A stretch of 63,699 nt of DNA, counting the filler, from Asterionella formosa (lineage: Eukaryota), in NCBI GenBank assembly GCA_002256025.1. It is 14 parts of 14 records of this genome, joined end to end, with 100 filler letters (N's around TTAATTAATTAA, not from the genome) between each part and the next. Parts side by side here need not be neighbours in the genome. Positions count along the whole stretch, not along the records: positions 22,942 to 45,764 come from NKIB01002618.1; 13 more parts are not named here. One strand, given 5' to 3'. This document shows, piece after piece, positions 10,608-61,154 of this stretch; position 1 is the stretch's first letter, and the number at the start of each line of letters is the position of its first letter. A program made the translations under genes and the position numbers. The notes under the pieces were generated by a model. That model made no database searches. It saw only the letters and a program-made list of their open reading frames with translations, and was not told the DNA's origin.

Positions 10608-13600
10608 TTAACAAGCAAAGTTTCGTTTCTTGGGCTCATCATCCATTAAGTCATCATAAGATGCTGAGGAATAATCTGAATATTCAGACCCGCTTTCCCA
10701 GCTTGAAACGGACTGCAGTGTACTGTGCTGAAGCTGCGATCGAGCTCCGAATTTTCGAAGATACGAACTAGTAGTTGACGAGGCACTGCTGGTGTTTGTA
10801 ACAATGGACTCTGTCTGTCGAACAGGGTAGGTATGCCTTGGAAATTCCTCCTCTCTAGCGGATGGGGTTCGAGTTGAAATTCTTGATTCCTTGATGTTCC
10901 TATCCCTCATGTAGGCGATGTACTTTGCAACAGCATCCCAATCATTCTCTGAAATGAACTTGTCCACAGCACTCTGGGACCACTCGTCTCCAAAGGGTTT
11001 GTCACAGGACTGGACTTGCCGTTGCAGTTTTTTGCTCATGACACGAAAGTCATCTGTCACTTCAGAAGCAGTTTGCCAGTCTTTCTTGCGAATAGCAATA
11101 TCCAGAGCCTTTCGTTGTGCCTTGTCAAATTTCTCCTTACGATTAAGGAATTCAACGTCAGACTGACTGAGTGCTGAAATGGAGTCACTTGCATGAGTTT
11201 CTGTTTCAGCTTCCTTGAGCACGTCAGCGTGATTGCTCTCACTTGAGCCAGAGGACGATTTTTGGTTACCATCATGGGATTTGGAAAACGAACTATGCTT
11301 GGCAGAGCGAGGAGGGGAATAAGATGAGTTTTCGTTAAAGCGTTCCTTCTTCAGACCAAGGCGGAATGAAGAAAATTCCTCCACGCGAAGTTCTCGGGTT
11401 CGCGTAGTAAAGGGGCTGACCCGTGGACTAAATCGAGAAATTTTTTTATCGGGGAGATAACTCTCCTCATCGCCGGACAAACTTGTCTCAGCCACTTTAT
11501 ACTCTTCGGCAATTGATTCAAAGACATGAGTCCCCAAAAGATTTCCAGCCTTAGCAGTTTTTTCTGTCTTTTCAGTCACATTGCTCTGAGACGTGCGAAG
11601 GCGAGCCAACTGCAACGGTGAAGGAGGTGCCATAGAAACACCCAAAAGTTTAGGGCGGCGAACAATAGGCATGACATTTTTAATCGCCTCCTCCTTGTCC
11701 TTATCTGTGGGCAGCTCGCTGCTGCAGAGGGATTCTGCCGTTTGAATGGGCTCATCGAATGGCTTGGAATTGACCATATCTCTCAGCTGATGCAATAGTT
11801 CGTCTTCACGTCCATTATACTGTTGCATCACCTTAGCAACACTGTCTCCATCCGGTGGAGCCATCTTGGTCAACAAATGCTTAATTTCAACCTTCTTGGT
11901 CCACACTGATTGAGGATAGTCCTTTTGTGCCATTTTGAGAATGCTTTCCTTCTTGTCTGGCTGAATCTCACCTCCTTCCATTTGACGTTGCTTCTCTGCC
12001 GACAAGTCTGCCTTATGCACCATTTCATCAAACTGTTGTTGCAAACAAGACGGTTGAATCTCCCTTGGAATGTTCTTCTTCTGGCGAATAACAACCTTGA
12101 AATCCTTTTTGGAAATGATTTCCAAGCTAGTAGGTTCTCCGTCCATCAAACAGGGAGGTTTAGACCACGTGGCCTTCCGTGTCAAACGATGGTAATAATA
12201 AGTACGTCCCGTGGTAGGGTCTGTTGCCTCCTTCCAGACAGGCTTGAGAGTGGGTGCAAGTGCAGGACGAGCAGCAACTGTCGGTGGCATAGCAGCATTA
12301 ACAGGTGTGATAATAGCTCCTGGAGGAATGGTTTTAGTAGTGACAGAGGTAGTTGATACTAATACTGGCATAGCAGCATTAACTTCCTCTGGTGACGCTG
12401 CTGCCAATGCTCCGTTGTCCTTGTAACTCATTCGGGATAAGCTGGCAAAGGGATTGCCCAAGGATGGCAGCGACATGAAAGTCGATGTGCTGACCTCCTC
12501 ATCGGGTTTCGCCACTTCAGTAGGAGGAACTGCTGCATTAGTCATAGCATTAACAGGTGTGGTAGTAACTGCTGGCGGAATGGTATTAGTAGTGACAAAG
12601 GTAGTAGCAACTACTGGCATAGTAGAATCAACTTCCTCTGGTGACGCAACCAACGTTCGGTTGTCCTTGTAACTCATTTGGGACAAGCTGGCAAAGGGAT
12701 TGCTCAACGACGACAGAGTCATAAAAGTCGATGGGTTGGCCTCCTCATTGGGTTTCGGCACTACCGCGTCACCACATATCGTCTCAGGGGGTTCGTCGAC
12801 ATTTACAGGAACGACAGCGGCTTCGGTTGGTGCAAATGTCTTGGCATTGACCCGTTTGGGTGTGAGTTCTTGTTCCGACACCAATTCTTCCCCCAATAAG
12901 TCTTCACCGTTCAAGAATTCGAAGGACACTTCATCGAGCTCACCCAGGGATTTCTTGTCAGACGGACGATCAACTTCTGATTGCACCATGCTGCGCTTGG
13001 TTGCCCACCATCGCTTCTTCTCGACTTGTTGCTGTAGCTGCATGGTTGCGTCTGGATCCAACACGAGCTCAAAGTTTTCATGCAAGGTCAAGGTCTTGTC
13101 CCTCACATGTGTGGTCGGTTTGGTTTCCAACGACTGAAAAAGACTGTCGTCGTCGTCGTCGTCACTGACATCCGGCGCCACGCCCCAATCGGGAAGCGGG
13201 ACCTTTGGGGGTTCAGGAGGCGACACAACTTGCTGGCATGCTTGGTCCATCATTCCCAACACATCTCCCAGCAAGGATTTGTAAATAGCATCCGTCGCCT
13301 CTTTGTAGTCTACCACAGGGTCTTTTTGCTCTGGGATCACCGTCGCAGCCACGGAGGTGTCAAGCAACGGAGCAATGGAGACTTTCAGGGCCGTCTTGTG
13401 TGCCATGGACATGGACAAATCAGAAACGGTCGTGTCAGTCCCGTCGTTACGAGGAGGCGAATTGGGAGGGGATCCTTTGGTAGTAATCACAGTCACACCA
13501 TTCATGGGAGAGTCTGGAGTCAATGGCGGCGTGGTTCCAACGACGAAGCGCCCAAAGCGTCGCTGCTGCACGTTGTACTCGTCGCTCTTGGGCAAGGACT

Positions 13601-13664
13601 TCTTCGGAGTCAAGAGTCGCTGCGAATCGCCTTTATAGTTCTTGCGAGCCGTGGTGTATCCCAT
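10608..13664 (-). CDS. Large WW-domain protein (~1018 aa), largely disordered
   Basis: 1056-codon ORF; first ATG at 13664 (MGYTTARK). WW domain PVWKEATDPTTGRTYYYHRLTRKATWSKPP; internal ~80-aa duplication. Confidence 0.85.
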   Translation of the reverse strand: MGYTTARKNYKGDSQRLLTPKKSLPKSDEYNVQQRRFGRFVVGTTPPLTPDSPMNGVTVITTKGSPPNSPPRNDGTDTTVSDLSMSMAHKTALKVSIAPLLDTSVAATVIPEQKDPVVDYKEATDAIYKSLLGDVLGMMDQACQQVVSPPEPPKVPLPDWGVAPDVSDDDDDDSLFQSLETKPTTHVRDKTLTLHENFELVLDPDATMQLQQQVEKKRWWATKRSMVQSEVDRPSDKKSLGELDEVSFEFLNGEDLLGEELVSEQELTPKRVNAKTFAPTEAAVVPVNVDEPPETICGDAVVPKPNEEANPSTFMTLSSLSNPFASLSQMSYKDNRTLVASPEEVDSTMPVVATTFVTTNTIPPAVTTTPVNAMTNAAVPPTEVAKPDEEVSTSTFMSLPSLGNPFASLSRMSYKDNGALAAASPEEVNAAMPVLVSTTSVTTKTIPPGAIITPVNAAMPPTVAARPALAPTLKPVWKEATDPTTGRTYYYHRLTRKATWSKPPCLMDGEPTSLEIISKKDFKVVIRQKKNIPREIQPSCLQQQFDEMVHKADLSAEKQRQMEGGEIQPDKKESILKMAQKDYPQSVWTKKVEIKHLLTKMAPPDGDSVAKVMQQYNGREDELLHQLRDMVNSKPFDEPIQTAESLCSSELPTDKDKEEAIKNVMPIVRRPKLLGVSMAPPSPLQLARLRTSQSNVTEKTEKTAKAGNLLGTHVFESIAEEYKVAETSLSGDEESYLPDKKISRFSPRVSPFTTRTRELRVEEFSSFRLGLKKERFNENSSYSPPRSAKHSSFSKSHDGNQKSSSGSSESNHADVLKEAETETHASDSISALSQSDVEFLNRKEKFDKAQRKALDIAIRKKDWQTASEVTDDFRVMSKKLQRQVQSCDKPFGDEWSQSAVDKFISENDWDAVAKYIAYMRDRNIKESRISTRTPSAREEEFPRHTYPVRQTESIVTNTSSASSTTSSYLRKFGARSQLQHSTLQSVSSWESGSEYSDYSSASYDDLMDDEPKKRNFAC

Positions 13665-15788
13665 ACTAAAGGTATCTATAGAAGGAAAGGAGGCAATCAA
13701 ACAAACGCAATGGCTAATAGAATTGAAATAAATCGACAACAGATAGGTAGTATTCTTGGCTGGAAAGGTACGGTGCACTTCCTGTGAGTGGATTCTTCGC
13801 TACATGAGCTGCGCGATGTTTCTACGTCGAGGAGGAGTTTTATAGAACCACAGACTATTACTTACTTGAATAGAGGGAAATTTTCGAACATTGCCTCAAT
13901 CTATATCTCTGTATAAAATCATTTCGTTTGCCAAATATTTTATCACTTGGAATAGCCAATGCACGCCTGCATTAGCATACGCCGGCTGGGAGTTCCGGCA
14001 AAAAAAATAAGTCAGAACCTTTTCATCATATGGAGCTTCGGCTGCATTCAAGGTCAGAGTACAGTATAGTCCACGTGCGAGCTGGTAAATAGCTATTTAG
14101 CTGAGATACCGTACTGCGATTTGTTCATACATTAAAAACGAGAGAGTAGCATGTCATCAGCCTCTGTCTTGACCACGACAAAAATAGTGATTATCTCCAC
14201 AAGGATTGAGAGCAACACTTTCTTATTTCGCACATCTATCAAGCAATACATAGACAGCACAATCATAAAAGAATTAGACTACGTATTCTATTGGCATAAA
14301 TATTGACAATGACGATTGAAGTTGGCTGCTGATGGCGTATTTTTCGTGTAATTTAGAAATGCACAATTTTTTACTGCTGGTACTGGTAGCAGTTGACTGT
14401 CTGCCATACTATATCCATAGGTTCAAGTTCCAGCCTCTTCATGAAGCCTCACCAGTATCCAGCTCCCACTGCACCCTTCTTACTGTTCCTGTAGTGAACA
14501 GTGTGTATCTGTTAGGGTTATTGTTATTAGTAGTTTAGCATGTTGCCTTTCATCTGAGATTTTGTGGTTTGATTCCCGCAATTTTTTGAGAAGCAATTGT
14601 TGGGTTCAACTCCCACACTCCTTACCATCCTGTGCAGCCTTGCCTGCTGGTGTGCAAGAAATAGTGGGTTGCCCCCCTCCCTACAAGCAGCTTGTGCCAC
14701 CTTTCTAGGCAGTCAGAGTTTTCCCAATGCTGTGGCTAAGATGATCAACTTTTGTGAAAGGCGGTTGGGGACTCATCTACTACGCCAAATAAAACTAGGG
14801 AAGCACAGGTCTTCTCAACAGATAGCACAATGAATACTTGCCTATAGAAATAGGGGAGTACAAATTTGCTATAAAACTTACTAACTTTTTTAAACAGTGT
14901 GTGTCTGCTTCCATTCCAGTTAGGAGTCATATGCTGTTGGAGTGTCTGAGATGATGACAAGTAGAAGTCCAGTTTCGACAACAGATCAGCATATGCATTT
15001 TCGCTAAATAAGCTGGGCGAAAAATTTGTTTTTAGTTAGTTTAAGTGTACTTTAAAATTCAATTGTGGAAAAAATGGGATAGGGAGATCCTTGTTTTACA
15101 ATGACTGCTGCTGAGTTTGAAGCCTTCAAGTTTTAACTTTTATTGCTGCTGATGCTTGGATGTCAGATTTCAGTTTGGAAGCAGCTATGATTTGGTAAGT
15201 TCTCCTTCCTCAACTCTGCTTTTGTTATTCATTTTCTTGTTGCATCTAACAGCTCGGTTTTGGTTGGTTACATTATTTGTTACTAATTTAATTCATTGCT
15301 GGTAGTCTCTTAAAAATGCCATCATGGTGCTATGCATGTTTGGGACAATTACTTGCTCCTGGTGTAGCAAAATTGAGTTGTCTCAAGGGCAGCACTATTT
15401 TTGTTTGTGCTCCCCCCCCTCATGACAGTTAAGCCGGAGCTCATAGAGGTGCATTTGCTTGGTATCCTCAAAAAGCGATTTATGTTCCTGCAGGTGTTCA
15501 ACCACCTTCACCTTGAGGATCATATCAACAATGCTTTTTTGCCTCATTGCAATCTACAGGATGTTAAGTCCTCTCTTGATCCAGATGGTGCTTCAAGTCT
15601 ACCTTCCAGCACCTCTTGAAAATCATCTTTCTACCCTCCCCCTTTTCAGTTTACCATGTTGCCAGTTCCATAACTTTCTTGGTGGTGCCAGATGTTATGA
15701 ACAACATCTTCTCCCTCTAGATAAGTGAGAGTCAAGCACAAATGTTAATATTGACAATCAATGTGGAATGCTACATTACTTAACATCA

Positions 15789-18772: not shown

Positions 18773-20860
18773 CTAGGACGAACAGCTGAAAAATGCCGTT
18801 CCAGCTTTTGTTAAATCATGTGGGCTTGCTCGACGGTAGTATAGATCTTGCTGGAGGGCGGTTCCTTCCTCGTAGGGTGCCTTCATCAATTCGTACAAAT
18901 CCTGAATAGTCTCAGTATTACCAGCCTCTGCATTCTTGTAGGCTTCTACCATCATCCATTCACGAAGGACATATTTGGGGTTGGCCATTCTCATACGCTC
19001 GGCAACATCATCCTGCTCAACAAGCATTTCACGCCAATCTTTTATCCATTCCAAATATTTAGCACGGTGCTCTGGTGTAAGAGGCTCATAAAAAGGACTC
19101 GTATCACCATCCGAAATCAATGTTTCCAACATTGCCTCATAATCGGTTGATTCGTAGTCTTCAAAATCTCTAGCGATGCAGGTTAACTGACGCCAAAACA
19201 GTGTCCAGTCTACTCGAGACTTTATCATCAATGGATCAAGAGATTGAAGCAAAGAATCTGCAACTTCCATGTCGATTTCAAATCCCATTTTATTTCGAAA
19301 GACTTGATCAGTCTTTGCATCAAACATATATTTGGCTTCGACTAGAAACTCATCCATCAATTTCAATTCGCCGCTTTTATTGTTTGTCGCAGCACAAATC
19401 ACCGGCACAACACTTTCGACCAATACTTTATAATTAGCGAATCCAGCAGTGGGCTGGTTCTTAAAGCCAAAGTGCTCTCCAGAGCCTGTCCATTTCGCAA
19501 AGAGTGGGAAGTATTCCTCCATGAACCCAAAAGGTCCATAGTCCATTGTATGCCCCCCAATCAAACAATTGTCAGCGTTGAAGTTTCCTTGGCAAAATCC
19601 TACACGGATCCATTCTGCTACCATGGTGGAGATGCGATCGGCCGATTGGTATAGCAAGACAGTGGCAGCCCCTGCAATATCCTTCGTCTTGATAAATGGA
19701 TCATATGCTCCGGTACGAAATTCACGAAATGCCACATGCCAAATCATATCTTCCAATTCCTTCCATTCATTGGTGGTTGTGTCATACCCAGAATTGGTCT
19801 CCTCTGTCTTAGAGTTAGTCAACTTCAGGTCACTCTTCTTGATCGCTCGTCGTGCAAATAAGTCGACATGTCCGATCCTGGAAAAGGATTTGCTGACTCG
19901 GCAAGTAATGGCACATGGTTCCATAATCATTAGATTTGGATCCAATTTTTCATTGCGAAGCTGCATGATGATTTCTCGCCTTTGTTCCTGAGTGTACTTG
20001 GACAGTCTCGAGTCGTCCATTGTTGGCACTTGTAAGGACGCGTTGGGAGAATACCATGGACGTGCAACTGTCTCAGACTGTGACACAACCAACGACAGGG
20101 CCCGGGTAGTGGAAACCCCAAGATGGTGCATGGCCTCCGAGGCAAGGAATTCCCGAATGCTGCTCCTCAAGACCGCTCGTCCATCTCCACCTCGACAGAA
20201 GGGCGTTGTGCCGGCTCCTTTCAATTGCAGTTCCAGCCCTTGGAATTCTCCAATGGAAATGGCCCGTCCATCTCCATATCCGTCTCCAGTGCCAAAGGGG
20301 CAGTTGGATGTGTACCGGTTCCCATTGATCGAGAGCGCATACGGCGTGGCCCACGAGTCTCCCAAGTGCAGATTGCCCGACACAAAGTTGGTAAAGTCAG
20401 TGGACATGACATCCTGTGGTGAAAGTTTCAATTGTTCGGCGACGTCTTCGCTGACTAGGATCAATTGTGGGTCCGGCAGTCCAGTGGGCTTGACGAGTAC
20501 ATAATGGCCATTGAACACTGGGCGCTTCTTGCGGTTGTCGTGCTCCGGACCACGCAGGCCCACCTGTTCGAGGGACCGTTTGAGGTTCGCCGGAGTCTCC
20601 TGCGAGAGCTGCGCAATCCAGGAGTTGTCGAATTGGATGCCCGCCAAGGCGCCTGCTTGGTCCATGCTGGTAGAGGTCGTGGAGGTGGTGATGGAAAAGG
20701 AAGAGGCGGAGCCAACGAGGAAAGTCGAAGCGGCCAATCTGAGGCGCATCACAGAGGGAGATTTAGAGCTTTGTCCAGCGGTTTTTAGGAGAGAATAGCG
20801 GCGTGGAGAAGTGGGGCCAACGAACAACGACGCGATGAGTCGACGAGAGGCACTCTGCAT
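18773..20860 (-). CDS. SELO: SelO/YdiU protein adenylyltransferase (Cys-type C-terminus)
   Basis: Motifs GDGRAI, ELQLKGAGTTPFCRGGDGRAVLRSSIREFLASEAM, GFCQGNFNADN, DYGPF, NPKYVLR; ends FSCSS-TAG. Confidence 0.93.
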   Translation of the reverse strand: MQSASRRLIASLFVGPTSPRRYSLLKTAGQSSKSPSVMRLRLAASTFLVGSASSFSITTSTTSTSMDQAGALAGIQFDNSWIAQLSQETPANLKRSLEQVGLRGPEHDNRKKRPVFNGHYVLVKPTGLPDPQLILVSEDVAEQLKLSPQDVMSTDFTNFVSGNLHLGDSWATPYALSINGNRYTSNCPFGTGDGYGDGRAISIGEFQGLELQLKGAGTTPFCRGGDGRAVLRSSIREFLASEAMHHLGVSTTRALSLVVSQSETVARPWYSPNASLQVPTMDDSRLSKYTQEQRREIIMQLRNEKLDPNLMIMEPCAITCRVSKSFSRIGHVDLFARRAIKKSDLKLTNSKTEETNSGYDTTTNEWKELEDMIWHVAFREFRTGAYDPFIKTKDIAGAATVLLYQSADRISTMVAEWIRVGFCQGNFNADNCLIGGHTMDYGPFGFMEEYFPLFAKWTGSGEHFGFKNQPTAGFANYKVLVESVVPVICAATNNKSGELKLMDEFLVEAKYMFDAKTDQVFRNKMGFEIDMEVADSLLQSLDPLMIKSRVDWTLFWRQLTCIARDFEDYESTDYEAMLETLISDGDTSPFYEPLTPEHRAKYLEWIKDWREMLVEQDDVAERMRMANPKYVLREWMMVEAYKNAEAGNTETIQDLYELMKAPYEEGTALQQDLYYRRASPHDLTKAGTAFFSCSS

Positions 20861-21529
20861 CAAGCAATCAGGTGGATGTCTGACAAAAGGCAACACACAC
20901 AACCAAAATGCTGTCTGTATACCGGTAGTCTACTTCTTTGATCTATGAATTTGTGAGAGACGAGTCATTCCTCAGAATTTTACGAACAACCGCCATGATG
21001 ATGACATACCGGTGCGTGTAGACTAATACGTACATCATATATTACGGTATATCGATACCCAATCATTCTACCGCTACATAGGTACGATCGCAACCTCACT
21101 TCTGCTCGCGTCAGCAATACTCCATATGATTACCTGCATATTTCTATTTGTACTGGTATTTTTTTCTGATGCCAGAGATCCATGGCTGATGAGGTACCAG
21201 AAAGGAGTATTAGGTATGGTACCAGGTACCCTGGTACGAGGTACGTAGCATGGTAAATATTTATAGCCAGCCATGCAGTCTTGCGAAGTCAAGAGCAGGC
21301 TGCAGGTCTTGAAACAGACCGGTACCTGGTACCTACCTTAGTTAATTGAGGATTGATTAGCGGTATGTACATGGTACCGTGGCTAACCATTTCGAGACAG
21401 CACTGTTCCGCGATTTTGAAGTGCATAGATGATATTCCAATAGGACTGGTAGCTGATACAACTGCTACATACATAAGCACAGAACCAGAGGCTAGTCCTG
21501 GGGTGATGGCTACTGTTTTGTTAAAGAAT

Positions 21530-23656: not shown

Positions 23657-24657
23657 AGATTTGATGGGGCAAGACGAACGATATTTAGAGTTTCTGCATT
23701 CAGACGCAAGAATCAACCAAGCTTTCGTTTTGAATCTCTTCTGGGATGCATTATAACGTGAGAGTTCATTTTTCTAATGCAGTGGGCGAAAAGTAATTCG
23801 ATTTCACAATTTGCACTCTTTATTAAACTGCCTATCTACTACTCGTATGGACACACTCTTGCGCGTGTTTTTTATGTTTGATGATGGCAGGTCACATTGT
23901 TCATTAAACTATCATGAAACTGAATCCACGGTCGGGGATGGATTTTTTATCCAATATTTTTTTGTTTATGTTTGTTTTGGACAGCCATTTACTACTTGTC
24001 TACGTTCCACTTGTTTGCGTGGCAAAAATTGTAAGGATCCTCCTTGTAATACGATCCGCATGTATTTAGCCTCTTATTTTGGTTTGTTGACGGTGCGTTA
24101 TCAGTAGATAGCTTGGGCACACTCATCAACATGGAAAGTCAGCTGTATTACACATTGTCGTCTCGCTTCCATATGTACTATGATGCATGTCGCGATCCTG
24201 CATACGACGAAATGTTTGCAAATCTTGCATGTCATGACTGCATTTGAGTGGCATTGCTTTAGCTCACCGGTGATGGAAAATAAGTTGTAACAACTTGGTT
24301 CAAAGAATATCGCTTCTTGGGAACATTATCACAAGGGCCAGGGTGAGTTCTTTTCTGGCATCTACACGTTCTCGTTGGTGTAGTTGTAACCGTTCAAGTC
24401 GTAATCATTAGCATAATTTTGTTTTATGGTTGTTGTCTATATTCAGCATGTACCTGTGACATTCAAGAATAAACATGCAACTGTAAGAATTAATTGTTAA
24501 CGCTGCTGATCTAGTGTTGGTGCATTTATTTCCAAGATATTCGGCTTGTCCGGTTATCACTTCGTACAAATGATGCCGCATAAGTTGGTTCATCGTTTCT
24601 ACGACACGTGTAAAATGTAGTTGCAATGTAGAATTCATGGGTCATCGAACAATGTCA

Positions 24658-25574
24658 TCAAACCCCAACCATGTCACCAAGGAATGCGTCCAGGTCAGCA
24701 TCAACGACAAGCGGAAATTGATCTTCGTAGGAAGAGAACGCATCCATTAGAAAATCTCCAAGTTCCGTCTCCTCCAAGTCTTCTGAGTTGGATGACAGAT
24801 CACTTGCAGTCTCAAACGTCGTTGTCTCTGTTAACGAGGAACTAGCATCAGGAGCTAGCGGCTCAAAAGTATCATCATCATGGATTGACTTCACTGCTGG
24901 AAGGTAAAACATAGGAGGAACATGAGTTCCTTTAAGGGTGATCAAATAGACTCGGCTGGTCGAGAGATCATAGTCATGATGTTTTGATACTTTTGGTCCA
25001 CTAGTTCTTGATGGCTGTTCCTGTCAGAGAGAGAGAAACGAGAAGGCAAACGGTTGGAGACAGGAGAGAGGCAAGGAGATGAAACCTCCGACGGACAGGG
25101 GGAAACAAAAACACTGCGCGAATCCTTTCCCCGTACGAGAGTTTTTTCTTGTGAAATATTGCGAGGTACAAAGAGAGGAGTGCTGCTGTCCCCGCGTGAT
25201 TCCAACTCCATGATGCGGGCTAGAGCAGCCTGATACTTCGTGTTCAAAGCAGAAACTTCACTTTCGAGTTCCTCAATACGGTCGCGCGTTCGTTTGCGAG
25301 ACTCAGCAGCAGACTCGCGATTGCGAACACGACGAGCTTCCTTTCTCCAGGAGGTAAGTTCATCTCGGGTCATGGGCACGCCAGGATCGTAGCGAGCTTG
25401 CAGCTTGATCCCGGTCGGATGAGGCTTGGGGTCGGATGAAACTGCCTCAGGGACCTCGGCGTACTCCTCCTCCTCTGCGCATTGCCTCTTGACATCGCGA
25501 TGTAAACGATGCATGCGGCGCTTTCGGGCCAAGCCCGCTTGTTCGTCGGTAGCTGCTGCTGTGTCTACAGTCAT
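24658..25574 (-). CDS. bZIP transcription factor, HAC1/XBP1/bZIP60-like; unspliced 210 aa, predicted spliced 285 aa join(25574..24956,24896..24658)
   Basis: Basic region ARRVRNRESAAESRKRTR plus leucine zipper. A downstream acidic ORF in another frame is joined by removing 59 nt between two CAG|CNG hairpin loops. Confidence 0.88.
24897..24955 (-). other. Putative IRE1-type unconventional intron (59 nt)
   Basis: 5' hairpin GAC-[CAG|CCGA]-GUC and 3' hairpin CUUC-[CAG|CAGU]-GAAG; no GT at the 5' boundary. Confidence 0.75.
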
Positions 25575-26438
25575 GTTTGCAAACTTGTGTCATCGTTCAT
25601 GACCAAGCATGAGTCGAAAAGTGAATGAGATGGAAACAAAAGTCACCTTTTCAGACGCACATCAAAGGTAAAGAAAAAATGACCCTCGCTGGGTGCTACT
25701 GTGGCACCAATCGCAATAGAAAAAGGGGTAGAAAATCGAAGCTGGTAAGAACCCACAAAATTTGAGTACTATTGAAAATTGCAATGTGGCAATTTTTTGG
25801 CTCATGACCCGGAACTTGTCGCCAGCACAGCAGCCGCTTTATACGAGGAGCGCGGTACTAACGGCATGATATACCGGTATACATAGTATTTCATGATTCA
25901 TGCGGAGGAATGTGCTTCGATAGAAGAAATTCGACGAAAGACGCCCATGGTTGGCTCATGCTGGCTGGAGAACTGATCCATGACGCACCGTGACGACAAG
26001 AATCAGGTACCGGCAGTACGATACCGGTAGTCAAGTCTGGCCAACAAGCTCAGCCTTCAGCAAGTAGACAAAATTCTTGTCTATTTTTTTAATGCTATTT
26101 TGGGATGAAGTGTAATAACAGACTTTAGTTTACAAAACTAAATATCATAGCTAATATTAATTATTAAGCAAATCAGTAGAACAAACGTTTGATCCTAAAA
26201 TGCTACGTATTGCTCTGTCGGATGGCTACTTCATGGGTTTGTTCGCCAATGAAGGAGATGAGAAGCTATAGTACGTGGTGAGGGCAGATGCCGAGAAACA
26301 CCAATCCTAAAACAGTGGACCGACAAAAGATAAAAGTACTTGCCCTATTTTCCCTTGAATTAACGAAATTGTTTCTTAGTTCCCTGCACCTACCCGAAAT
26401 TGCAGGAAACCTGATATCTAGCACACTTCGGGCGGAAT

Positions 26439-27950
26439 TCAATGAGTAATAGGCGTTTCACTAGCAACAAATTCTTCCCAAGATTCAATAATATCTCTCC
26501 CCTCCGACGGATCTGATCGTCGCAAATTCAGGCATTCCCGTAACAAGTTCCCAGAGACATGAGGTGGAATTCTAGTGCAAGCCGTGCACCACCCTGACTT
26601 TGTGCAAATTTCTCTTCCTGTCTGAACCGACGGTACATGCAGCCCACAACGGACACATCGTTCATCCTTATGTGGGCTGCGAAATGGTCCAAAGCGAGAG
26701 TTATTTCGTGCGATTCCCCCTCCCAAAACTGATTGGGCAGCCAAGACGCCAATGCCTTTTTGAATATCCCATAAGTCGTCTGACTTGCCCCTGAGACAAA
26801 CTGGTAGCTCTCTGATGCGGTCAAGTCGAATTTGTTCTGGAAAATCAGTGTCCGAATTAAGCCGTAATCTATGGTCATCCTCGCGCTCCAACTGACGCCG
26901 CAAGTTGTGAAATCGATTCTTTATCCCATTGTCTGTCCTTCCTGGAATCATCTTACTCATTTGGGCCCAATGACTTCCACTTGAATTATAAAAGGCGAAA
27001 ATTGTGGCATCTTCCACGGTACTCCAGTCTGCCACCTTGAGTCTGGGGTTCAAGTGATTCACATAACGTTCACGGCATTGTTTTCCAGTTCGTTCAGGGA
27101 GCGATTGGGCAACAAGACTCCATTTCATTGGCATTTTCATCGTCTGCACCATTTGTAAGAGCAATTGGTCTTCTTCCTTGGTCCACACCTTTGGACCAGA
27201 CTTCCGTTTCAAAGCTGCGGCCACGCTGTTGTCGAATGGAGGTGAGGGAGACGAGTCAGTTCGGCCTTCGGGTGATGCAGCAGGAGGTGGGCCTGCTAGG
27301 TGAGCTGGCGGAGGATGTCGTATACTACCAGTCACGGCAGGAGGATATCCTGGATACGGTTCACCAGTTGATGCGTAAGGTTGACCTGCATAATGATATC
27401 CATAGTGATGTGGGTAAATTTGAGGCGGAGGAGCTCCAGTAGGATAAAATGATGGTTTAGTCGCAGGGTGAGGCAGCGCATGTGTCCATCGCTCTGAGTC
27501 TTGAAAGCGCACAGGCCGATCGGTAATAATTGGAGATGGTGCTCCTTCCGGCAACAACAACTCTCTCGCACGATTTCCTGTAGCTGGCCCGACACCCCCT
27601 TCGGAACCAATCTTGACCCATTCTGTATCCCCATCAGAGTAACGTAGCAAATGTTCTTCATTCCTATCATCGTATTTTTCGACGACTCCAGTGTACCAAC
27701 AGTTATCAACTGGCCAAAATACTTTAACCTTGTTTCCAATCATGCACTCGGGACAGAATCTTAGTTTCAGTTTGAGCAGGGGCAAGCTAGTGAGCAAAGC
27801 AGCGCGGTTGATTCAAATTAACGCACAGGCAGTCCTTTTCCTTAGACCTCACCTCGGCCTTACGCCAACAGGAACAACAATATCTGGATCATCGCAGGCC
27901 AAGAGGGGGAAGCCCGTCTTTTGACAGTTCAAGCAGTGCTCTGCTGTCAT
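26439..27950 (-). CDS. R2R3-Myb transcription factor with N-terminal Tudor-like domain; join(27950..27853,27759..26439)
   Basis: Myb repeats WTKEED...W..VAQSLPERTGKQCRERYVNHL and WSTVED...W..MSKMIPGRTDNGIKNRF. Tudor-like IGNKVKVFWP..NCWYTGVV..YD......LRYSDGDTEW. A 93-nt GT-AG intron gives MTAEHCLNC...VRPR/FCPEC. Confidence 0.88.
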
Positions 27951-33267: not shown

Positions 33268-33780
33268 ATTGGGGGTAGTATAGACCAGCGATAGAGGATA
33301 GATCAGCAATGCATTCAACAATCAAATCAACAAAGTAACAAGCAGCGTCTAACAAGGAAACGGTCAGTTGGCTTGAAAGCTGAGGAGGGGGCGAAAATGA
33401 ATCTCGGTGTCAGCTAAAATGATGATGTTCATTTGCACGGTCGATCATGACATACGTCCTGCCTATGCCACATACTTAGAACCGTCGTTTGGCTGGCTGG
33501 TATACAGCATTCTAAATGTACCGGTATGTTCCAGGTACCGTAGTGACTTTATGCATTCATGATACCATCAGGGGTATCGTAAAAATCGAGATACATTATT
33601 GCTCCAATGAGATTGTTTGTTCGAATTAGTGTATTATTTCATATGGGCGATCGTTTCACAAAGAATATTAATAGAGTCGTTTTCATCAACACACCGTTTT
33701 CTTCGCATACCGGTAACTATTAATCATCGGTATACAATTGCAATCCCAATCCAACAGCATCAACATCACAAAGCATCATC

Positions 33781-34713
33781 ATGGGAGAACGTAAAGTCTT
33801 AAACAAATACCTCCCACCGGACTTTGACCCGTCACTAGTCCCACGCACCAAGAAACCAAAAGATGGTTTGGTTTCGGTACGCATGATGCTTCCCTTCTCT
33901 ATTCAATGCACCAATTGCAACTCTTTTCTCTATCGAGGACGAAAGTTCAATTCAAAGAAGGAAAACGTGGAAGGTCCGGATGGAAAATACTTGGGAATTC
34001 AAAGGTTTAGATTTTACATAAAATGCACCGCCTGTTCCAGGCCAATCACCTTTTTGACAGATCCCAAGAATGCCGATTATGAAATGGAGAATGGCGCGAC
34101 AAGGAATTACGAGATGAAGAAAGACCAGACTGAAACGGAAGAGCAATTCGATAAAGACAAGGAGGATGAAGAAAAGGAGGCGCCCTTAAAGGCTTTGGAG
34201 AATAGAGTATTGGCTAGTCAGCTGGAGATGCAAGAAATGGATGCTCTGGAAGAAATAAAAGCAATGAATATGAGACATCTTCAACTTCTGGCAAAGAATA
34301 AGGAGGCAGGTTTCGGACAAGAAGCCAAAGCTGTGTTGGATGCAATCGCTTTGAAGGAGCAGCGACATGTAGACGAAGAATTAAATGAGTCAGGAATTTC
34401 TCAAGCAGATGAAGCGATCATCAAGAGTATTCAATTTGGCAAAAAGCCATCGGAAGATACGGTAAAAAGATTAAACGAAGATGATGAACGTATATCAGAG
34501 GAGCGAAGGCTCCAGCAAACAATGATGTTTGAGAAGCAACAACAAGCACTCACATCGAAGCCAGCCACAAAAGTAGTCATGCCCGTTCTCAAAGCCAAAC
34601 GAAAAAGACCAGTTGCTCAACTGGAACCTGGGAAGAAGTCAACATCAGAAGAAAAGAAGAAAGAGACTAGTGGTTTGAGCCTACTGGGTGAATATGGGTC
34701 TGATTCTGATTAG
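33781..34713 (+). CDS. YJU2: Splicing factor YJU2/CCDC94 (Cwc16 family)
   Basis: MGERKVLNKYLPPDFDP, VRMMLPFSIQC..C, KFNSKKE, YLGI..FRFYIKC..C, TDPKNADY..ENGATRN; C-terminal LLGEYGSDSD. Confidence 0.93.
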   Translation: MGERKVLNKYLPPDFDPSLVPRTKKPKDGLVSVRMMLPFSIQCTNCNSFLYRGRKFNSKKENVEGPDGKYLGIQRFRFYIKCTACSRPITFLTDPKNADYEMENGATRNYEMKKDQTETEEQFDKDKEDEEKEAPLKALENRVLASQLEMQEMDALEEIKAMNMRHLQLLAKNKEAGFGQEAKAVLDAIALKEQRHVDEELNESGISQADEAIIKSIQFGKKPSEDTVKRLNEDDERISEERRLQQTMMFEKQQQALTSKPATKVVMPVLKAKRKRPVAQLEPGKKSTSEEKKKETSGLSLLGEYGSDSD

Positions 34714-35409: not shown

Positions 35410-37245
35410 CTAGGATCGCTTTACATTGATTGGTAATAATTGGGATGAAAGTCTGTATATGCCAATGTCGTGTCCAGATATGCTTGCCTCGAATGAACCT
35501 GTAAACCTACCTAAAAAATTTCGTTTCCAAAGATCTCGAACCAAAAAAGTGCTGTGATTACCAGCTTGGGTATTTCCCTCAAGCTCCAACAAAGATGCAA
35601 AGTATGAAGTGATGGCGACCCGGTTTGTTCCTCGGTTGACCAGCCCAAGTACATAATCTCCTCCAGATAACTTCCCGCCCCAAACTTCGATAGCGCCGTT
35701 GTCGGAACCAAGATTTCCGTCCGAGAGTACATGCGCAAGACAATGATGCCGAAAGGTTGGAATCTTATTTGTCAAGGTATATCCTTCGCCCTCCTCGGGC
35801 TGATGGTTGATAGAAGAAGTATATAGTGCATGTCGTAGTAGACCATCATGACTGGAGTAATACCACATTTGGGTTGGATCATAATTCTGACAATTGCGAA
35901 TCGAACATTCTCCATGATCATATGGTGTTACAAGTTCAATTCCACCTTGCCCGTATGCACTATCAGATACGTTCACGCTATCATGTCCATGTGCCGAACC
36001 ATATAGAGTATTGTTGCTTATTGCCAAGTTTAGTCCATTTGCGGCACTCCGAATAGCAGTCACAGTGCTAAATCCCTTATCAAATAACCAGTGCTGATTT
36101 TTTGAAGACAAGCAGGGCATAAGTACCACTTGGTCATTTAACACACTGAGGCATCGCCCAGTGGCCTCGTTCATTAATTGATATAGATCGTCTTGACCCA
36201 CTTCCATAGCATTCCATGTTCGTGTCTCTCTCAAATCGCTTTGCTGTCCTAGTCGATAATGCTTTAAATGGAGTCCCACTGGCGTGCTACAATCCTCCAC
36301 GCCAACCTTCCATGGAAGATGCGATCCATCAATCGTTATCTTTCGAGCCTGATATCCAAGAGGGTCTTGGTTGATCGAGATGATCTCGGTATTTCTGATA
36401 ATGTCAAGGATTGCAGGCTCAAGCGCCATAAGGTTCGATGACAAGAGTAGGGGAGCTTTCATGATGGCCCATAGTCCAAAATAAAGTCTGTTTTCACCTA
36501 GTGTCATACCTAATTCGCCTGGATTTTGCAGATTGATCAAATCGGGGTCATTCCAGCCTCCAGGGCCAGCAAGAGGTGCCCACTTGTCCGATAAATCAGC
36601 TCGATTCATGACAGCGGAATATGTACCTTCAATATCGCATCCAATCCGCCACATATTGCTTACTTGTATCGACTGAGAAGGATCAGGATTGATCGAGAAA
36701 GGCTCGATACTTAATAATATTCTTCTGCCGGTGCGATTTAATGCATGCGCCATGGCACCAAAACGAACGCTGCTGTCAATGGCGTAGGAGGCACAGTTGT
36801 CGCTCTTCAAAAAATCGACTCCCCATGATGCGTACGTTTCAGCATCTTTGAGCTCGTGATAGAGCTGTCCAGGTCCTTCTCCACAAGTGACGCCTGAGGC
36901 TGCCCCATAAATTCCAAATTTGAGATTTCTGTCGTGGAGTGTTTCAATGAAGGTTGGGAGACCACTGGGATATGCTATCTTGTTCCACAATAGCTCGCCC
37001 GTATCTGGGTCCCTCTCTTTTTCTTCCCACCCTTCGTCTGTGTTGATGTAAACGTAGCCCAAGTCGCGGAGGCCAGATGATACAAAGAAATCTGCCACAG
37101 CGCCAAGGCCAGTTTCATTTTGACAGCGAGGACCTGCCATGTAAGAATTGAACCCCATGGGCGGAGTTTTTGCTAGTCCGTTGTCAAGTGCTGACAAATC
37201 ATCTGCAATCACGCAAATCAAGATAAGTACAGCCTTCCACATCAT
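35410..37245 (-). CDS. Secreted GH27 alpha-galactosidase with inserted ricin-B-like region
   Basis: Signal peptide then LDNGLAKTPPMGFNS, DEGW, WGVDFLKSDNC, WRIGCD, GPGGWNDPD, AIMKAPLL and INQDPLG. TGRCL and QHW/QMW ricin-like motifs precede a C-terminal beta-sandwich (VWGGKLSGG..VLGLVNR). Confidence 0.92.
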   Translation of the reverse strand: MMWKAVLILICVIADDLSALDNGLAKTPPMGFNSYMAGPRCQNETGLGAVADFFVSSGLRDLGYVYINTDEGWEEKERDPDTGELLWNKIAYPSGLPTFIETLHDRNLKFGIYGAASGVTCGEGPGQLYHELKDAETYASWGVDFLKSDNCASYAIDSSVRFGAMAHALNRTGRRILLSIEPFSINPDPSQSIQVSNMWRIGCDIEGTYSAVMNRADLSDKWAPLAGPGGWNDPDLINLQNPGELGMTLGENRLYFGLWAIMKAPLLLSSNLMALEPAILDIIRNTEIISINQDPLGYQARKITIDGSHLPWKVGVEDCSTPVGLHLKHYRLGQQSDLRETRTWNAMEVGQDDLYQLMNEATGRCLSVLNDQVVLMPCLSSKNQHWLFDKGFSTVTAIRSAANGLNLAISNNTLYGSAHGHDSVNVSDSAYGQGGIELVTPYDHGECSIRNCQNYDPTQMWYYSSHDGLLRHALYTSSINHQPEEGEGYTLTNKIPTFRHHCLAHVLSDGNLGSDNGAIEVWGGKLSGGDYVLGLVNRGTNRVAITSYFASLLELEGNTQAGNHSTFLVRDLWKRNFLGRFTGSFEASISGHDIGIYRLSSQLLPINVKRS

Positions 37246-37881
37246 GGCAAGGAATGGTGAAGCGAAAGGGGGTGATTGTGACAAATCTAGGTTTTTCATA
37301 GATGTTACATAGTGTGGGACGGTATTTTTGCGTGTATCATCATTGTTCTTTGTGATTGGCAATAGATAAATACACGTACAGCTACCGGTACATGAATAAC
37401 ATAAATTCATTAATAAATTTCCTTTCCGAAAAGCAAATGTGTCAATATTTTATGTATTTATCTATATTAATGTTTAATTAAAAATACACAAATAATCATG
37501 TATGAGTATGTATACCGGTAGGTTAGAAAAGTGAGAAACCCATAAATTAAGTACATACATACATACCGGTAGTTGATATACAGCTTTTCTTCAATTTGGA
37601 CCTGCCCATATGTAAGTTTTTATTAATGTTTCAGCTTCCTGCATTGTAGTCTAGATATACTTCGAGTAGACTACAAGGGTACATGTAATAAACGAACTTA
37701 TACCAGGACATGGTCTGAATCAAATGTGTGAATTTATGCTTAATCGTAACTTGTTTGGCACTAAAGATGTCTGCTGCTTCTCATTCCTATGTATTTGGAC
37801 CCTTTATTGTCACAGAGTGTACTCAATAACCAACCAAAGTAGGGTATATGTTCCTCCATACAGCTTCATTCTAGCACAACC

Positions 37882-41795: not shown

Positions 41796-43404
41796 ATGTC
41801 GCGACAACCGAGAGTGGTTATTGTCCTTGTCATCTTGACGACGCTTCTAGTATTGGCTCATAGCGAACCCCTTCGACGCACGGTACTACTGGATCTTCGA
41901 GGTGGCAAGGTAGCTGCAAAGAAAGCAGCTGCAGAGATATCTCATCTTCACGATGATCAACTTATGAGCCCCACCGTTGCTATCGCCAATGTGCTAGCCG
42001 ATCTCTGTCCCCATGGCATGCTGCCAATTGGTACGTACCGTTAGAACTGGTTTAAGCCCTTGAGAGCCGATTTCGTAACTTGAAAGTTTCTGAACCGATC
42101 ATTTCTACACTACTAATTTGGCAGCCTATGGCATGGCCGCCGCGGGTGGCACTGGACCAGTTATATCCACTCTCTGCCTTACTGTGTTTGGGTTCCTCAG
42201 TTGGTATTCACTCGTCAGCTTTGCCCGAGCTGCCGAAGTCGTCTTGGTTCAGGCCGGTGAAACAGCCGAAGCTGGGGAGTCGCTGTCGGCAGTTTGGTCA
42301 AGGACCCTGCCGAATGGCAAACTCACATCGTATATTCCTGATTTGGGGTGCTTTCTATTGACCGTTGGATGCTTATTGTTCTACTCAGCCTTTATTGGAG
42401 ACTTATTTGGGGCATTAATATCAGGTTTGAAAGGACTTCCAGAAATATTTCGTAAGCGTTGGACCATCTTGCTCGTCTTGCATGCAGTTCCGATTTTGCC
42501 ACTATGCCTCAAAAAAGATCTGTCGGCACTCAAATATTCCAGCATGACCGGTTTACTAGGCATTCTCTATACCATGTTTTTTGTTGGTAAGCGACTCACA
42601 GACCATAGCTATGCGCAAGGTGGTAAATTCTTTTCCATCATGCCCTTCAAGTATCAACCTGCCGCACAATTGGCCTTTCCATCAAAACCTAGCGCATTGG
42701 GTTATATTGCCGACCTGCCACCCTTGTATGCGGGCAAGGGTCTCTTGATCCTAATGAACATGTGCTGTGTCGCTTTTGCATGTCATTACAATGCAGTCAA
42801 GTATTACATGGAACTCAAAAATCGCAATGTGCCAGCCTTGAAAAAGGTCATGGCCTTGGGGATTGGTGGGACGGGGCTTGTTTTCTTTGTCATGATGATT
42901 TTGGGATATGGAACCTTCGGATCGCATTCTCAGGCGCTCCTGTTGAACAATTATCATCCAACCAACGATCTCATGGCTACTGTCGCTCGCGGTTTTACCG
43001 GCTTGGCCATTATCTCGGGATACCCTCTCATGTTCGCTGGACTCAAGGCGGCCTTGTTTTCACTCACCAAATTAGATGGGCCAGGTGTGGTCAATCGCGA
43101 CAAGAAGCAAAATACCTTGTCAGCAATTGTAGTTGCATGCATTTCTACTGCTGCATGCTTTGTTACAGAACACGAACTATCCACTGTGATTGGAATTGTT
43201 GGTAGCATTTTCGGATCTGTCGTCATTTACATATTTCCTGCCTTTGTAAACAATTCGCTATTGAAGATGAAGGACAAACAGGGAAACCCAGTCAGTGCGC
43301 CTTTCTTCAAGGGAGAATTAATCTTCAACAACTTGTTGGTACTATTCGGTGTTGTCTTTGCTGTTCTTGGAACATGGATTAGTCTACAAGGGGGTGAACA
43401 TTAA
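41796..43404 (+). CDS. Amino-acid transporter (AAAP/SLC38-like); join(41796..42030,42125..43404)
   Basis: Multi-TM protein with LPLCLKKDLSALKYSS, AFACHYNA and GYGTFG motifs; 94-nt GT-AG intron in frame; N-terminal signal peptide followed by LRGG. Confidence 0.9.
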
Positions 43405-57700: not shown

Positions 57701-57825
57701 GTGTCCCCTGCGCGAGCTCGGAGTCNNNNNNNNNNNNNNNNNNNNNNNNNNNNNNNNNNNNNNNNNNNNTTAATTAATTAANNNNNNNNNNNNNNNNNNN
57801 NNNNNNNNNNNNNNNNNNNNNNNNN

Positions 57826-59219
57826 TTATATGAATGAGATGTGTATCGATAAAGAAGCATTTCACTTTGTTCAGTCATACAGCTTAAAGAAAGGCCTCAA
57901 GAAATTTGGCCAGAAAGGAAGAGACGCTGCTTATAAGGAAATGAAACAACTACATGATAGAGTTGTGTTTGAACCGATTAGGATTGAAGACCTAACCGAT
58001 ATTGGAAAACGACGTGCAATGGAAAGTCTAATTTTTTTGGTTGAAAAGAGAGACAAGAGCATTAAAGGCAGAGCATGTGCCAATGGCAGTTCGCAACGTG
58101 AATACATGGAAAGAGATGAAGCAGCTAGTCCAACTACCATGACTGAATCTGTTATGATAACAGCAACAATTGATGCGAAGCAAAATCGCGATGTTATGAC
58201 TGCAGATATACCCAATGCATTTGTGCAAGTGGATATCGATGAGAAAGAAAAAGGGGAGCGAATCATTATGAAGATTAGAGGTTTGCTTGTCAATATGTTG
58301 ACAGAACTCAGCCCCGAGACTTATGAAAAATATGTTGTTTATGAAGGGAACAACAAGGTCCTATATGTTAGGATGATCAAGGCATTATATGGCATGTTAC
58401 AGTCATCATTATTATATTACAAGAAATTTCGGAAGGATATTGAGTCAATTGGATTCAAGGTAAACCCATATGATCCATGTGTTGCAAATCGCATTGTTAA
58501 TGGCAAACAGCACACAGTTACTTGGCACGTAGACGATTTGAAATCAAGTCACGTGGACAGGAAAGTGAATGATCAATTTTTGGAATGGCTCAAACAGAAA
58601 TACGCTTCTGACGAAATTGGTGAAGTCAAGGTCATGCGTGGAAAGAAGCATGATTATTTGACTATGACGCTAGATTACTCTATTCCAGGAGTGTTAAGGG
58701 TGGACATGACCAAATATGTCAAATCAATGATTGATGATTTTCCAGTGAAACTTGAAGGTGTTGGAAAATTTCCTTGGACAGATAAATTGTTCACAGTTGA
58801 TACAAAATCAAAGAAGCTTGAATATGAAAAAGCAAAAATATTTCATACTTTTGTTATGAAAGGAATGTTCCTATGTAAGCGAGGAAGACAGGACATTCAA
58901 CCAGGAATTGCATTTCTGGCAACCCGAACTATCGAACCGAATGAAGGCGATTGGGCAAAATTAGTCAAGATCATGAATTTCTTGAAAGCAACTCAGAACG
59001 AGGTTGCATCTATGAGTGCTGATGACACTCAGAGCATTAAATGGTACGTTGATGCGGCGTTTGCAGTGCACAAAGATTTTAAAAGTCACACTGGAGCTAC
59101 AATGTCACTTGGAAACGGAATTATTTGTTCTATGTCCACGAAACAGAAAGTGAACACTAGAAGTTCGACTGAAGCAGAATTGGTTGGTGTCGATGACATC
59201 ATATCAAAGGTGTTGTGGA
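57826..59219 (+). mobile_element. Ty1/Copia (CoDi-like) reverse transcriptase-RNase H, open frame, partial
   Basis: Motifs KGRACANG, ADIPNAF, KALYG, NPYDPCV, WHVDD, WYVDAAFAVH.DFKSHTG and RSSTEAELVGVDD. Confidence 0.93.
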
Positions 59220-59578
59220 NNNNNNNNNNNNNNNNNNNNNNNNNNNNNNNNNNNNNNNNNNNNTTAATTAATTAANNNNNNNNNNNNNNNNNNNNNNNNN
59301 NNNNNNNNNNNNNNNNNNNGGGCTCATTCAACCGGATTTGATTTTCAAAGTGTCAGCACTCCTTGTTTGGATGGCTATCTGAATTGTCGACAAAGTGCCA
59401 TTCTTTGCTATTTTCTCGGGAGCATAGGGGCAAGTATCAACAAGTGCATTGCCAATATAGTTAATAATTGTATTAAATTCTGCTTGTAGCCTGCCTGCAC
59501 ATTCCCTCTGCCTCTGTGTTCTGGAATTCACTTTGTCTTGTTCTCCAATTGTTTGGTAGCATTGTGGTTCAGTTGCAT

Positions 59579-60713: not shown

Positions 60714-60988
60714 NNNNNNNNNNNNNNNNNNNNNNNNNNNNNNNNNNNNNNNNNNNNTTAATTAATTAANNNNNNNNNNNNNNNNNNNNNNNNNNNNNNN
60801 NNNNNNNNNNNNNTGTGCAGTCCAAAAAGGTCCAAAACGACCATAATAGTGCATATTTTGTATAATAATTTTAATTTATTAATTCCGAAAAATGCCTTCA
60901 AAACTAATGCGCACCTCTCCCTCCGTCCATCATATACCGGCAGACTACCGGTACCCTGGTGAAGTATCTAACTAGAAGTAGTAGTATT

Positions 60989-61154
60989 TGTTGAATATAT
61001 GAGCTTATTAATTAATCCTTATGTATAACTCATTTCCTGAACTGACATCAAAGTATAGAATGGGTGTTAGTCGAGTTCTCTCATTATTGAATTCCGATAT
61101 ATTTGACATAACCCCAACTCTATATATATCTGTATCGATGTGCAGGATTGCTCA
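60989..61154 (-). mobile_element. Putative short 3' LTR of the Gypsy element
   Basis: Purine tract GTGGGAGAG is immediately followed by TG (61154); a candidate end ...TTCAACA lies at 60989. Confidence 0.5.

Follow-up and report, generated by a model that had tools for sequence, protein, structure and literature searches.

A diatom bZIP mRNA that loses a 59-nucleotide hairpin-bounded intron, probably by IRE1-type splicing

The window analysed here is a stretch of 63,699 nucleotides (nt) from the diatom Asterionella formosa (assembly GCA_002256025.1), composed of 14 joined parts, and its segment from record NKIB01002618.1 (positions 22,942 to 45,764) carries on the minus strand a bZIP gene that raises a question: how does one mRNA come to encode two proteins with different C termini, when the joint between the two coding segments lies in the loops of two hairpins? 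The two isoforms coexist in RNA, and a fraction of the mRNA loses exactly 59 nt. We regard it as very probable that this mRNA is activated by IRE1-type, non-spliceosomal cytoplasmic splicing, as are the mRNAs of HAC1, XBP1, bZIP60 and Chlamydomonas bZIP1. Splicing of bZIP mRNAs driven by IRE1 is the unfolded-protein response's (UPR's) oldest branch. The sequence of its substrate is not conserved, so substrates have been found lineage by lineage (HAC1, XBP1, bZIP60, Hxl1 and CrbZIP1).

The whole spliced gene extends from 25574 to 24658 on the minus strand. Exon 1 (24956..25574), as defined by the open reading frame (ORF) and its translation, begins with the ATG at 25574-25572, ends with G24956 and is identical to residues 1-206 of the database protein P0001. 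It includes the bZIP domain (residues 75-125, 25200..25352), recognised in Pfam by PF00170 bZIP_1 (E = 6.5e-09 and 36.2 bits, with the cut-off at 27.6) and, on the same region, by PF07716 (E = 4.6e-07). When the intron is retained, the ORF (25574-24945) encodes 210 residues and has the C terminus ...ISRPAESI* (...QKYQNIMTMISRPAESI*). Its TGA stop (24942..24944) is inside the intron, and the 210-residue product has no C-terminal tail because this stop sits three codons into it. Cuts after G24956 and G24897 remove the 59-nt intron (24897..24955), and the reading changes from the 210 residues of ...ISRPAESI* to the 285 residues of ...RPAVKSI.... The second open frame reaches 24661: exon 2 (24661..24896) supplies the CA that finishes an Ala codon and 78 further codons (residues 207-285 of P0001), with the peptide VKSIHDDD...ELGDFLMDAF...DLDAFLGDMVGV and the stop codon at 24660-24658. 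The sequence-only reading of this locus had proposed the change from 210 to 285 residues with an acidic and hydrophobic tail, and the product so predicted is identical to P0001.

Evidence for the joined form comes from RNA libraries and from proteins in a database. The stretch was matched in 20 sequencing runs, 19 of them RNA libraries, mostly lake or freshwater metatranscriptomes; four runs were mapped (X1, X5, X6 and X7), all environmental or unlabelled, X5 being a polyA library. In X6, a freshwater metatranscriptome, a spliced and an unspliced path lie between common flanks. The unspliced path is a unitig of 114 nt (24871-24984, k-mer depth 66.2), and the spliced path is a unitig of 55 nt (depth 41.8) that joins 24895 to 24955 and skips 59 nt, with five letters that fit either side of the joint. 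The junction can consequently be slid over six placements, with the first base of the intron anywhere from 24959 to 24954, that is, from four positions upstream to one downstream in the sense of the mRNA. P0001, in the protein collection, has 285 residues, is 100% identical to the predicted product and reads ...MISRPAVKSIHDDD...GDMVGV; it is independent of the read-level joint in X6 and is the stronger evidence. The deletion of exactly 24955-24897 that had been predicted is present in both. Within the 90% cluster of P0001, members of 285 or 286 residues occur on 6, 7, 1 and 1 (15) contigs, all of 1670 nt or less, and members of 210 or 211 residues on 6, 6, 5 and 1 contigs that reach 37559 nt. 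Only transcript-sized contigs therefore carry the joined form. One spliced protein (P0123) and one unspliced protein (P0124) have their amino-acid variants in common. The mRNA that keeps the intron is stable and polyadenylated.

The ends of the intron are presented in a defined RNA structure. The 5' splice-site hairpin, GAC[CAG|CCGA]GUC (24949..24961), has its loop at 24958-24952 and its cut at 24956/24955, between GAC (24961-24959) and GUC (24951-24949). The 3' splice-site hairpin, CUUC[CAG|CAGU]GAAG (24889..24903), has its loop at 24899-24893 and its cut at 24897/24896, between CUUC (24903-24900) and GAAG (24892-24889). A UGAUC in exon 1 (24966..24970) pairs with GAUCA of the intron (24943-24939) and extends the 5' hairpin. 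These two 7-nt-loop hairpins and the UGAUC/GAUCA extension, described earlier from the sequence, are borne out by the sequence and by a constrained fold. The basal stem expected from the flanks of the exons appears in RNAfold as a helix of 24 bp, 25003-24975 with 24882-24856, which encloses both hairpins and has a duplex energy of -32.4 kcal/mol. Its exon-1 strand (24975..25003, codons ..VDQKYQNIM..) pairs with its exon-2 strand (24856..24882) in both the minimum free energy (MFE) fold and the constrained fold, and a central intron hairpin, AGGAAC-UCAU-GUUCCU (24916..24931), is likewise found in both. A further pairing that had been suggested, UGACU with AGUCA, is absent from both folds and overlaps the GAAG stem. 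A 131-nt segment folds with an MFE of -32.6 kcal/mol (z = -3.86), which none of 200 shuffled sequences equals. In a 155-nt segment the conformer with both 7-nt loops has -44.9 kcal/mol, 1.1 above the MFE of -46.0, and the closing pairs have ensemble probabilities of 0.49 (5' hairpin) and 0.41 (3' hairpin). The constrained fold is a four-way junction of the exon-exon helix, the 5' loop arm (UGAUC/GAUCA plus GAC/GUC), the central intron hairpin and the 3' hairpin. Both cuts in the window follow the third base, G, of a 7-nt loop and fit CNG|(C/A)NGN, the sequence that Saccharomyces cerevisiae Ire1, the nuclease of HAC1, recognises in a 7-nt loop (PMC8104961).

The same two protein forms recur among related diatoms. 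The 210-residue query has 659 relatives, and those that are named are all diatoms: Synedropsis, Cyclophora, Cylindrotheca and Nitzschia/Tryblionella, as well as Nitzschia inconspicua and metagenome-assembled genomes (MAGs) of Bacillariaceae. Most relatives stop 0-10 residues past a conserved KYQHIMxMISRPxA, and a minority run on into an acidic tail. A culture of Synedropsis sp. CCMP1620 (MMETSP1176) has both a long form (P0135, 294 residues, ..IIRPTAAKITG..) and a short form (P0136, 227 residues, ending ..IIRPTA); a long form is also present in Tryblionella/Nitzschia MMETSP0744 (P0105), and the contigs L065 and L066 are already spliced. The junction reads x-A-(A/V)-K in 13 of the 15 proteins that have at least 40 residues after the RP motif. 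The exceptions, among models from Bacillariaceae MAGs or Nitzschia inconspicua, are P0216, which by our reading fits a GU...AG intron, and P0223, which is unexplained. Acidic residues make up 20.4% and basic residues 4.3% of 63 tails, and an acidic-hydrophobic motif, ELGxFLxDxF or EMDALL...LLPDxCLE, is present in 61 of 65. A search of the protein collection with the tail alone (residues 196-285 of P0001) matched only P0001, because the tail is too divergent for a word-based search.

Splice sites were compared in 80 orthologous loci, on metagenome or metatranscriptome contigs, gathered in one scan. Of 81 sequences, the window included, 75 contain C.GCAG.GAAG, the sequence of the 3' hairpin; four others have variants and two are already spliced. 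Among distinct sequence contexts, 52 of 53 have a 7-nt 3' loop C(A/C)G|CAG(C/U) closed by 4 bp or more, 51 of 56 have GAC...GUC around the 5' cut, and 46 of 56 have GAUC both in exon 1 and in the intron's 5' part. On our reading, the introns of orthologues also have a central hairpin, the sequence of which varies. L007, L057, L061 and L078, with a mis-assigned 5' cut, were left out of the structure and junction counts, as was L001, which is near-identical to the window, except in the count of 68 sequences given below.

Introns of the orthologues range from 59 to 170 nt. The 59-nt change is a 3n+2 frameshift in the window, as the sequence-only reading had it, but this is no rule of the family: length modulo 3 is 0, 1 and 2 in 20, 25 and 27 of 72 sequences. 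In the orthologues the unspliced ORF ends 1-8 codons past the cut, and with length modulo 3 varying in this way, it is the in-frame stop and not the frameshift that is the general device. When the exons are joined at the in-frame G of the Ala codon that follows ..RPx, the ORF becomes longer in all 72 sequences in which both sites were located; 65 of the joined ORFs stop after 61-199 codons, and seven run off the contig. In 68 of 69 sequences no other frame of exon 2 stays open as long as the junction frame, which has a median of 117 codons against 12 and 8 for the other two. The remaining loci were read by eye outside the count of 72: L003, L032 and L033 have no in-frame GC codon (L032 and L033 have CAG|UAGU), L035, L037 and L038 have the 3' variant CUUC[CUGCCGC]GGAG, L080 has CUUC[CAGCCGC]GAAG, and L065 and L066 are spliced.

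Covariation was assessed in an alignment of 31 sequences (A2) with the exon-exon helix and the 3' hairpin as the named structure. In this structure 83.3% of cells are paired, compared with 34-53% when the partner strand is slid, and both partners have changed in 11 of 17 pairs. At 0.268, the covariation score exceeds the 0.094 or less of slid structures and was reached by none of 500 shuffles; the stem covariation that had been anticipated is strong for the exon-exon helix. Cognate duplexes of exon 1 and exon 2 have on average -18.6 kcal/mol versus -11.7 for non-cognate ones (n=60), with none of 5000 permutations as good, and in group A the values are -23.8 and -13.6 kcal/mol. By these sequence comparisons, the 3' hairpin, the exon-exon helix and the open frame of the tail are kept across diatoms.

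Could the spliceosome make the same joint, the intron being retained or alternatively spliced in the nucleus at non-canonical sites and the hairpins being incidental? The 3' boundary (uuuuaccuuccag) does look like a polypyrimidine tract and an acceptor, and a CCACUAA that precedes the 3' site in many orthologue introns resembles a branch point, in our reading. In the IIRPIACV group an intron from the GU of the GUC stem to the AG at the end of GAAG would also be in frame; the genome-derived P0216 has ..RPIAC|ILPG.. at that GU...AG, and P0223 has another junction that is not AAK, ..RPIA|SKIPPG... Both deviating proteins are, however, NCBI predictions from genomes or MAGs, whereas all 13 long forms that come from transcriptomes, metatranscriptomes or run assemblies (JGI, MMETSP/EukProt, MERC and Logan) carry the G|C-type x-A-(A/V)-K. 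A GT-AG, GC-AG or AT-AC intron is possible at any equivalent placement of the observed junction in none of 68 sequences (the window and 67 loci). For the window, 48 combinations of canonical donors and acceptors around the site were tested and none gives the observed 285-residue product; 16 of them open the frame of the tail (for example, GT 25039 or GC 25015 to AG 24897, and GC 24956 to AG 24889) and give 252-290 residues, none with the ...RPAVKSI... junction. Enumeration also upheld the statement that the nearest GT (24951) and GC (24956) donors run into stops when combined with the AGs at 24897 and 24894. As the cuts also fall at an equal loop position in two hairpins and the intron is bracketed by a covarying exon-exon helix, we consider spliceosomal removal very unlikely.

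Another structure-specific endonuclease, such as the tRNA-splicing endonuclease or an unknown RNase, might instead make the cuts, with ligation to follow. The window has no IRE1 among the ORFs scanned, most 5' sites of the orthologues are non-canonical as IRE1 loops, and the four-way junction with its exon-exon pairing is loosely like substrates of tRNA-type splicing. The cuts are, however, in hairpin loops and not in the 3-nt bulges of a bulge-helix-bulge motif, and both loops of the window and 52 of 53 3' loops fit CNG|CNGN, while a promiscuous Ire1, which takes G|C in loops of 3, 7 and 9 nt, would cover the odd 5' sites (PMC8104961). A bZIP that gains an acidic tail is also the class of substrate on which IRE1 acts in fungi, animals, plants and Chlamydomonas (PMC13545648). 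An endonuclease other than IRE1 is, on these grounds, improbable. Least probable, and very unlikely, is that the short form of the gene is an allele with a genomic deletion of 59 bp or an artefact of assembly. The evidence from the species of the window does consist of contigs assembled from natural populations that are mixed, the X6 joint is carried by a short unitig, and the DNA runs give no information on the joined form. Against this, the joined form is confined to contigs of at most 1670 nt, and the unjoined form extends to contigs of 37559 nt in this species and 373641 nt in relatives. The unialgal Synedropsis CCMP1620 repeats the two-isoform pattern, as do at least four further lineages, with intron lengths that differ and a junction rule that is the same; for each lineage to have acquired its own deletion at these two positions of the loops is not credible.

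IRE1-type splicing, the reading that we prefer, has to be set against several results that count against it. The twin motif by itself may arise by chance and is not significant on its own: 19 CNGCNGN hairpins with stems of at least 3 bp occur in the window where 12.5 are expected from first-order Markov simulations, and two pairs lie 15-300 nt apart where 0.36 is expected, with at least one such pair in 30% of the simulations. Since the bare motif is not beyond chance, the weight falls on its position, the RNA evidence and conservation. The joint in X6 is flanked by 25 and 30 letters, under the 31-letter rule for bridging, and is modest evidence; a joint of this length is, by our own explanation, what a bubble of unitigs with k=31 should give. 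In X1, X5 (polyA) and X7 only the intron-containing form was assembled. These runs are uninformative on an absence of splicing, because contigs drop rare variants, and since the unspliced form is the sole assembled one in three of four runs, including the polyA library, the intron is not removed constitutively. Conservation of the loops, which had been expected on both sides, was found for the 3' loop (52 of 53), but a canonical 7-nt 5' loop is present in only 20 of 53 contexts. The commonest 5' class, UUG|CUUG (23 of 53), would be unfit for a stringent Ire1 of the yeast type; the spliced contig L066 proves that UUG|C is used. Other 5' sites (CAG|CUUG, AUG|CAUG and more) are in larger or smaller loops, down to the UG|C of L080 in a loop of 3 nt. 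The stem of the 3' hairpin hardly varies and yields no covariation signal. RNAalifold on the gappy A2 predicts the 3' hairpin as the sole helix and not the long-range helix; for group B (24 of the 31 sequences) it predicts the exon-exon pairs GCAC/GUGC and a pairing of GCUUGC at the 5' site with GCAAGU in the intron, which are uninformative because all are invariant, and it misses the CUUC/GAAG hairpin. No IRE1 and no ligase is among the 14 ORFs scanned with Pfam out of the 16 in the window of at least 220 residues, the other two being 1-954 and 13038-13787, both on the plus strand. A profile of 59 orthologues matches, in the PDB, only the bZIP segments of Jun, CREB, Fos and GCN4, with E values of 2.6e-4 or weaker, and an Rfam cmscan of 24600-25300 (E <=10) gave three unrelated weak matches, the presence of a HAC1 or XBP1 intron model in Rfam 15 being unchecked. 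With only generic bZIPs in the PDB and no Rfam match, orthology to HAC1, XBP1 or bZIP60 is not established.

The 24-bp exon-exon helix and the UGAUC/GAUCA helix hold the two hairpins at one junction. In the mechanism that we propose, the kinase/RNase IRE1 of the endoplasmic reticulum (ER) membrane would make both cuts when unfolded proteins build up, and an RNA ligase of the RtcB or Trl1 type would join the exons. The acidic tail would serve as a transcriptional activation domain, with which the 285-residue spliced protein may turn on genes for ER chaperones and related functions. We infer that IRE1 is the nuclease, ER stress the trigger and the bZIP protein a UPR factor. A more particular version of this scheme, which we put forward tentatively and hold to be doubtful as it stands, is an asymmetric splicing in diatoms. 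Here the 3' hairpin would be rigid and canonical, and the 5' site would in most lineages have drifted until only G|C is left, in loops that range from 3 to about 11 nt, presented by the exon-exon and GAUC helices as a ruler; the diatom IRE1 would have a relaxed specificity like that of Schizosaccharomyces pombe and yet splice precisely.

Of the closest known systems, HAC1 has exons that are joined by tRNA ligase and an intron of 252 nt; the diatom intron is much shorter, and the exon-exon helix of the window is 24 bp. In yeast, translation is blocked by base pairing of the intron with the 5' untranslated region. As in HAC1, the stop of the unspliced form is inside the intron and the spliced form gains a new, putatively activating tail. 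In bZIP60 the unspliced mRNA codes for a transmembrane anchor, which splicing removes, whereas the unspliced diatom product simply has no tail. The likeness to XBP1 is in a bZIP mRNA with a short intron, two stem-loops and G|C cuts, in the exchange of one C terminus for an activating one (predicted in the diatom), in the coexistence of both mRNA forms and, for the window, in the 3n+2 length. The XBP1 intron is, however, 26 nt (PMC4490496), compared with 59 nt in the window and 59-170 nt among the orthologues. Other differences are that truncation in the diatoms is by an in-frame intron stop with a variable length modulo 3, that the unspliced ORF has no long C-terminal region of the XBP1u type, and that no sequence relationship is detectable past the generic bZIP. 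The consensus of IRE1alpha is CUGCAG with a stem-loop, which the diatom 3' loops C(A/C)GCAG resemble (PMC2952871). With bZIP60 the diatom mRNA shares twin loops, with three conserved bases in each (PMC4891664); the Arabidopsis bZIP60 intron is 23 nt (PMC12781897). CrbZIP1 is activated through unconventional splicing mediated by CrIRE1 in Chlamydomonas, also a photosynthetic microalga (PMC13545648), but the diatom differs from the hosts of bZIP60 and CrbZIP1 as a stramenopile with a plastid derived from a red alga.

Two fungal systems are instructive in other ways. Hxl1 of Cryptococcus neoformans is an IRE1-dependent UPR bZIP described as novel and without clear orthology to HAC1 or XBP1 (PMC3154848); although fungal, it is a precedent for a lineage-specific IRE1 substrate known by its RNA features and not by protein similarity. 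Ire1 of S. pombe, in regulated IRE1-dependent decay and on BIP1 mRNA, cuts at UG|C or G|C, and the loops concerned have 3, 7 or 9 nt (PMC8104961); the non-canonical diatom 5' sites UUG|CUUG, CAG|CUUG, AUG|CAUG and the UG|C of L080 are similar. The S. pombe cuts lead to decay or truncation, whereas in diatoms a strictly canonical 3' site accompanies the cut and ligation of the exons follows. One report places heterokont bZIPs in a cluster with fungal HAC1, metazoan ATF6/OASIS and plant proto-B bZIPs, without bootstrap support (PMC4736632), and the only hint in the literature searched that bears on an IRE1 of the diatom is a kelp transcript annotated as ERN1/IRE1 (PMC6742357). In the full-text literature searched, with subscription journals and bioRxiv supplements outside its coverage, no IRE1 substrate is described for diatoms or stramenopiles.

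Some features of the orthologues stand apart from these comparisons. A large marine group (L022, L025 and L039-L079, with ..HIIDNTIIRPIACV; for example L067:680-876) has an invariant 5' site CCUAUUG|CUUGCGUC and no 7-nt loop. Several introns of this group have an internal CUGCAGC, and RNAalifold pairs GCUUGC with a GCAAGU of the intron that lies in a long central intron hairpin. In introns that are otherwise unalignable (A2 columns ~260-285; L031, L026 and L005, for example), a short conserved GAUCACCUAA follows the 5' hairpin and a conserved CCACUAAUA, like a branch point, precedes the 3' hairpin. On unspliced contigs, gene callers report exon 2 as a separate ORF of 84-94 residues that starts within the intron (P0121 and P0137).

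The minimal extent of the mRNA is 24577..25581 on the minus strand, as given by the intron-retaining contig of the polyA library X5. A metatranscriptome contig of 1727 nt from X1 spans 24304-26027, about 450 nt 5' of the ATG and about 350 nt beyond the stop; if it is a single transcript, the mRNA has a long leader with several upstream AUGs. A CTC insertion behind 25463 in runs X1 and X6 adds one Glu (compare P0132, of 286 residues). The X6 contig departs from the window upstream of 25555 with a loose end of 30 nt, so the strain in that run has a different 5' end or start region. Elsewhere in the window are genes for a Myb protein (26442-27812, minus strand), SelO (18776-20929, minus), Yju2 (33724-34710, plus), an alpha-galactosidase (melibiase) with a ricin lectin domain (35413-37449, minus) and an amino-acid transporter (42094-43401, plus). 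Remnants of copia-type retroelements occupy 57782-62254, with RVT_2 on the plus strand and, on the minus strand, an integrase zinc-binding domain. CNGCNGN loops with stems of at least 3 bp form another pair, 37 nt apart, at 56866-56910 on the plus strand; this pair lies upstream of the ORF of a copia-like reverse transcriptase and is probably due to chance.

The extension of the IRE1-spliced bZIP class to a lineage in which the literature searched describes no earlier substrate is well supported. The locus provides a concrete gene, junction and RNA structure for diatoms, which are major primary producers in marine and fresh waters, and both isoforms can be seen in cultures as well as in field material. 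Within the gene family it also exposes a systematic error of annotation, in that genome models bridge the intron differently from the transcripts (..RPIA|AKI..). It opens the question of the diatom UPR at a single junction and offers a design for a splicing reporter. Should the splicing be IRE1-dependent, this would be, within the literature searched, the first IRE1 substrate for the part of the eukaryotes that comprises the stramenopiles, alveolates and Rhizaria (SAR), and the ratio of spliced to unspliced mRNA in metatranscriptomes would then be an in situ gauge of ER stress in natural populations of diatoms.

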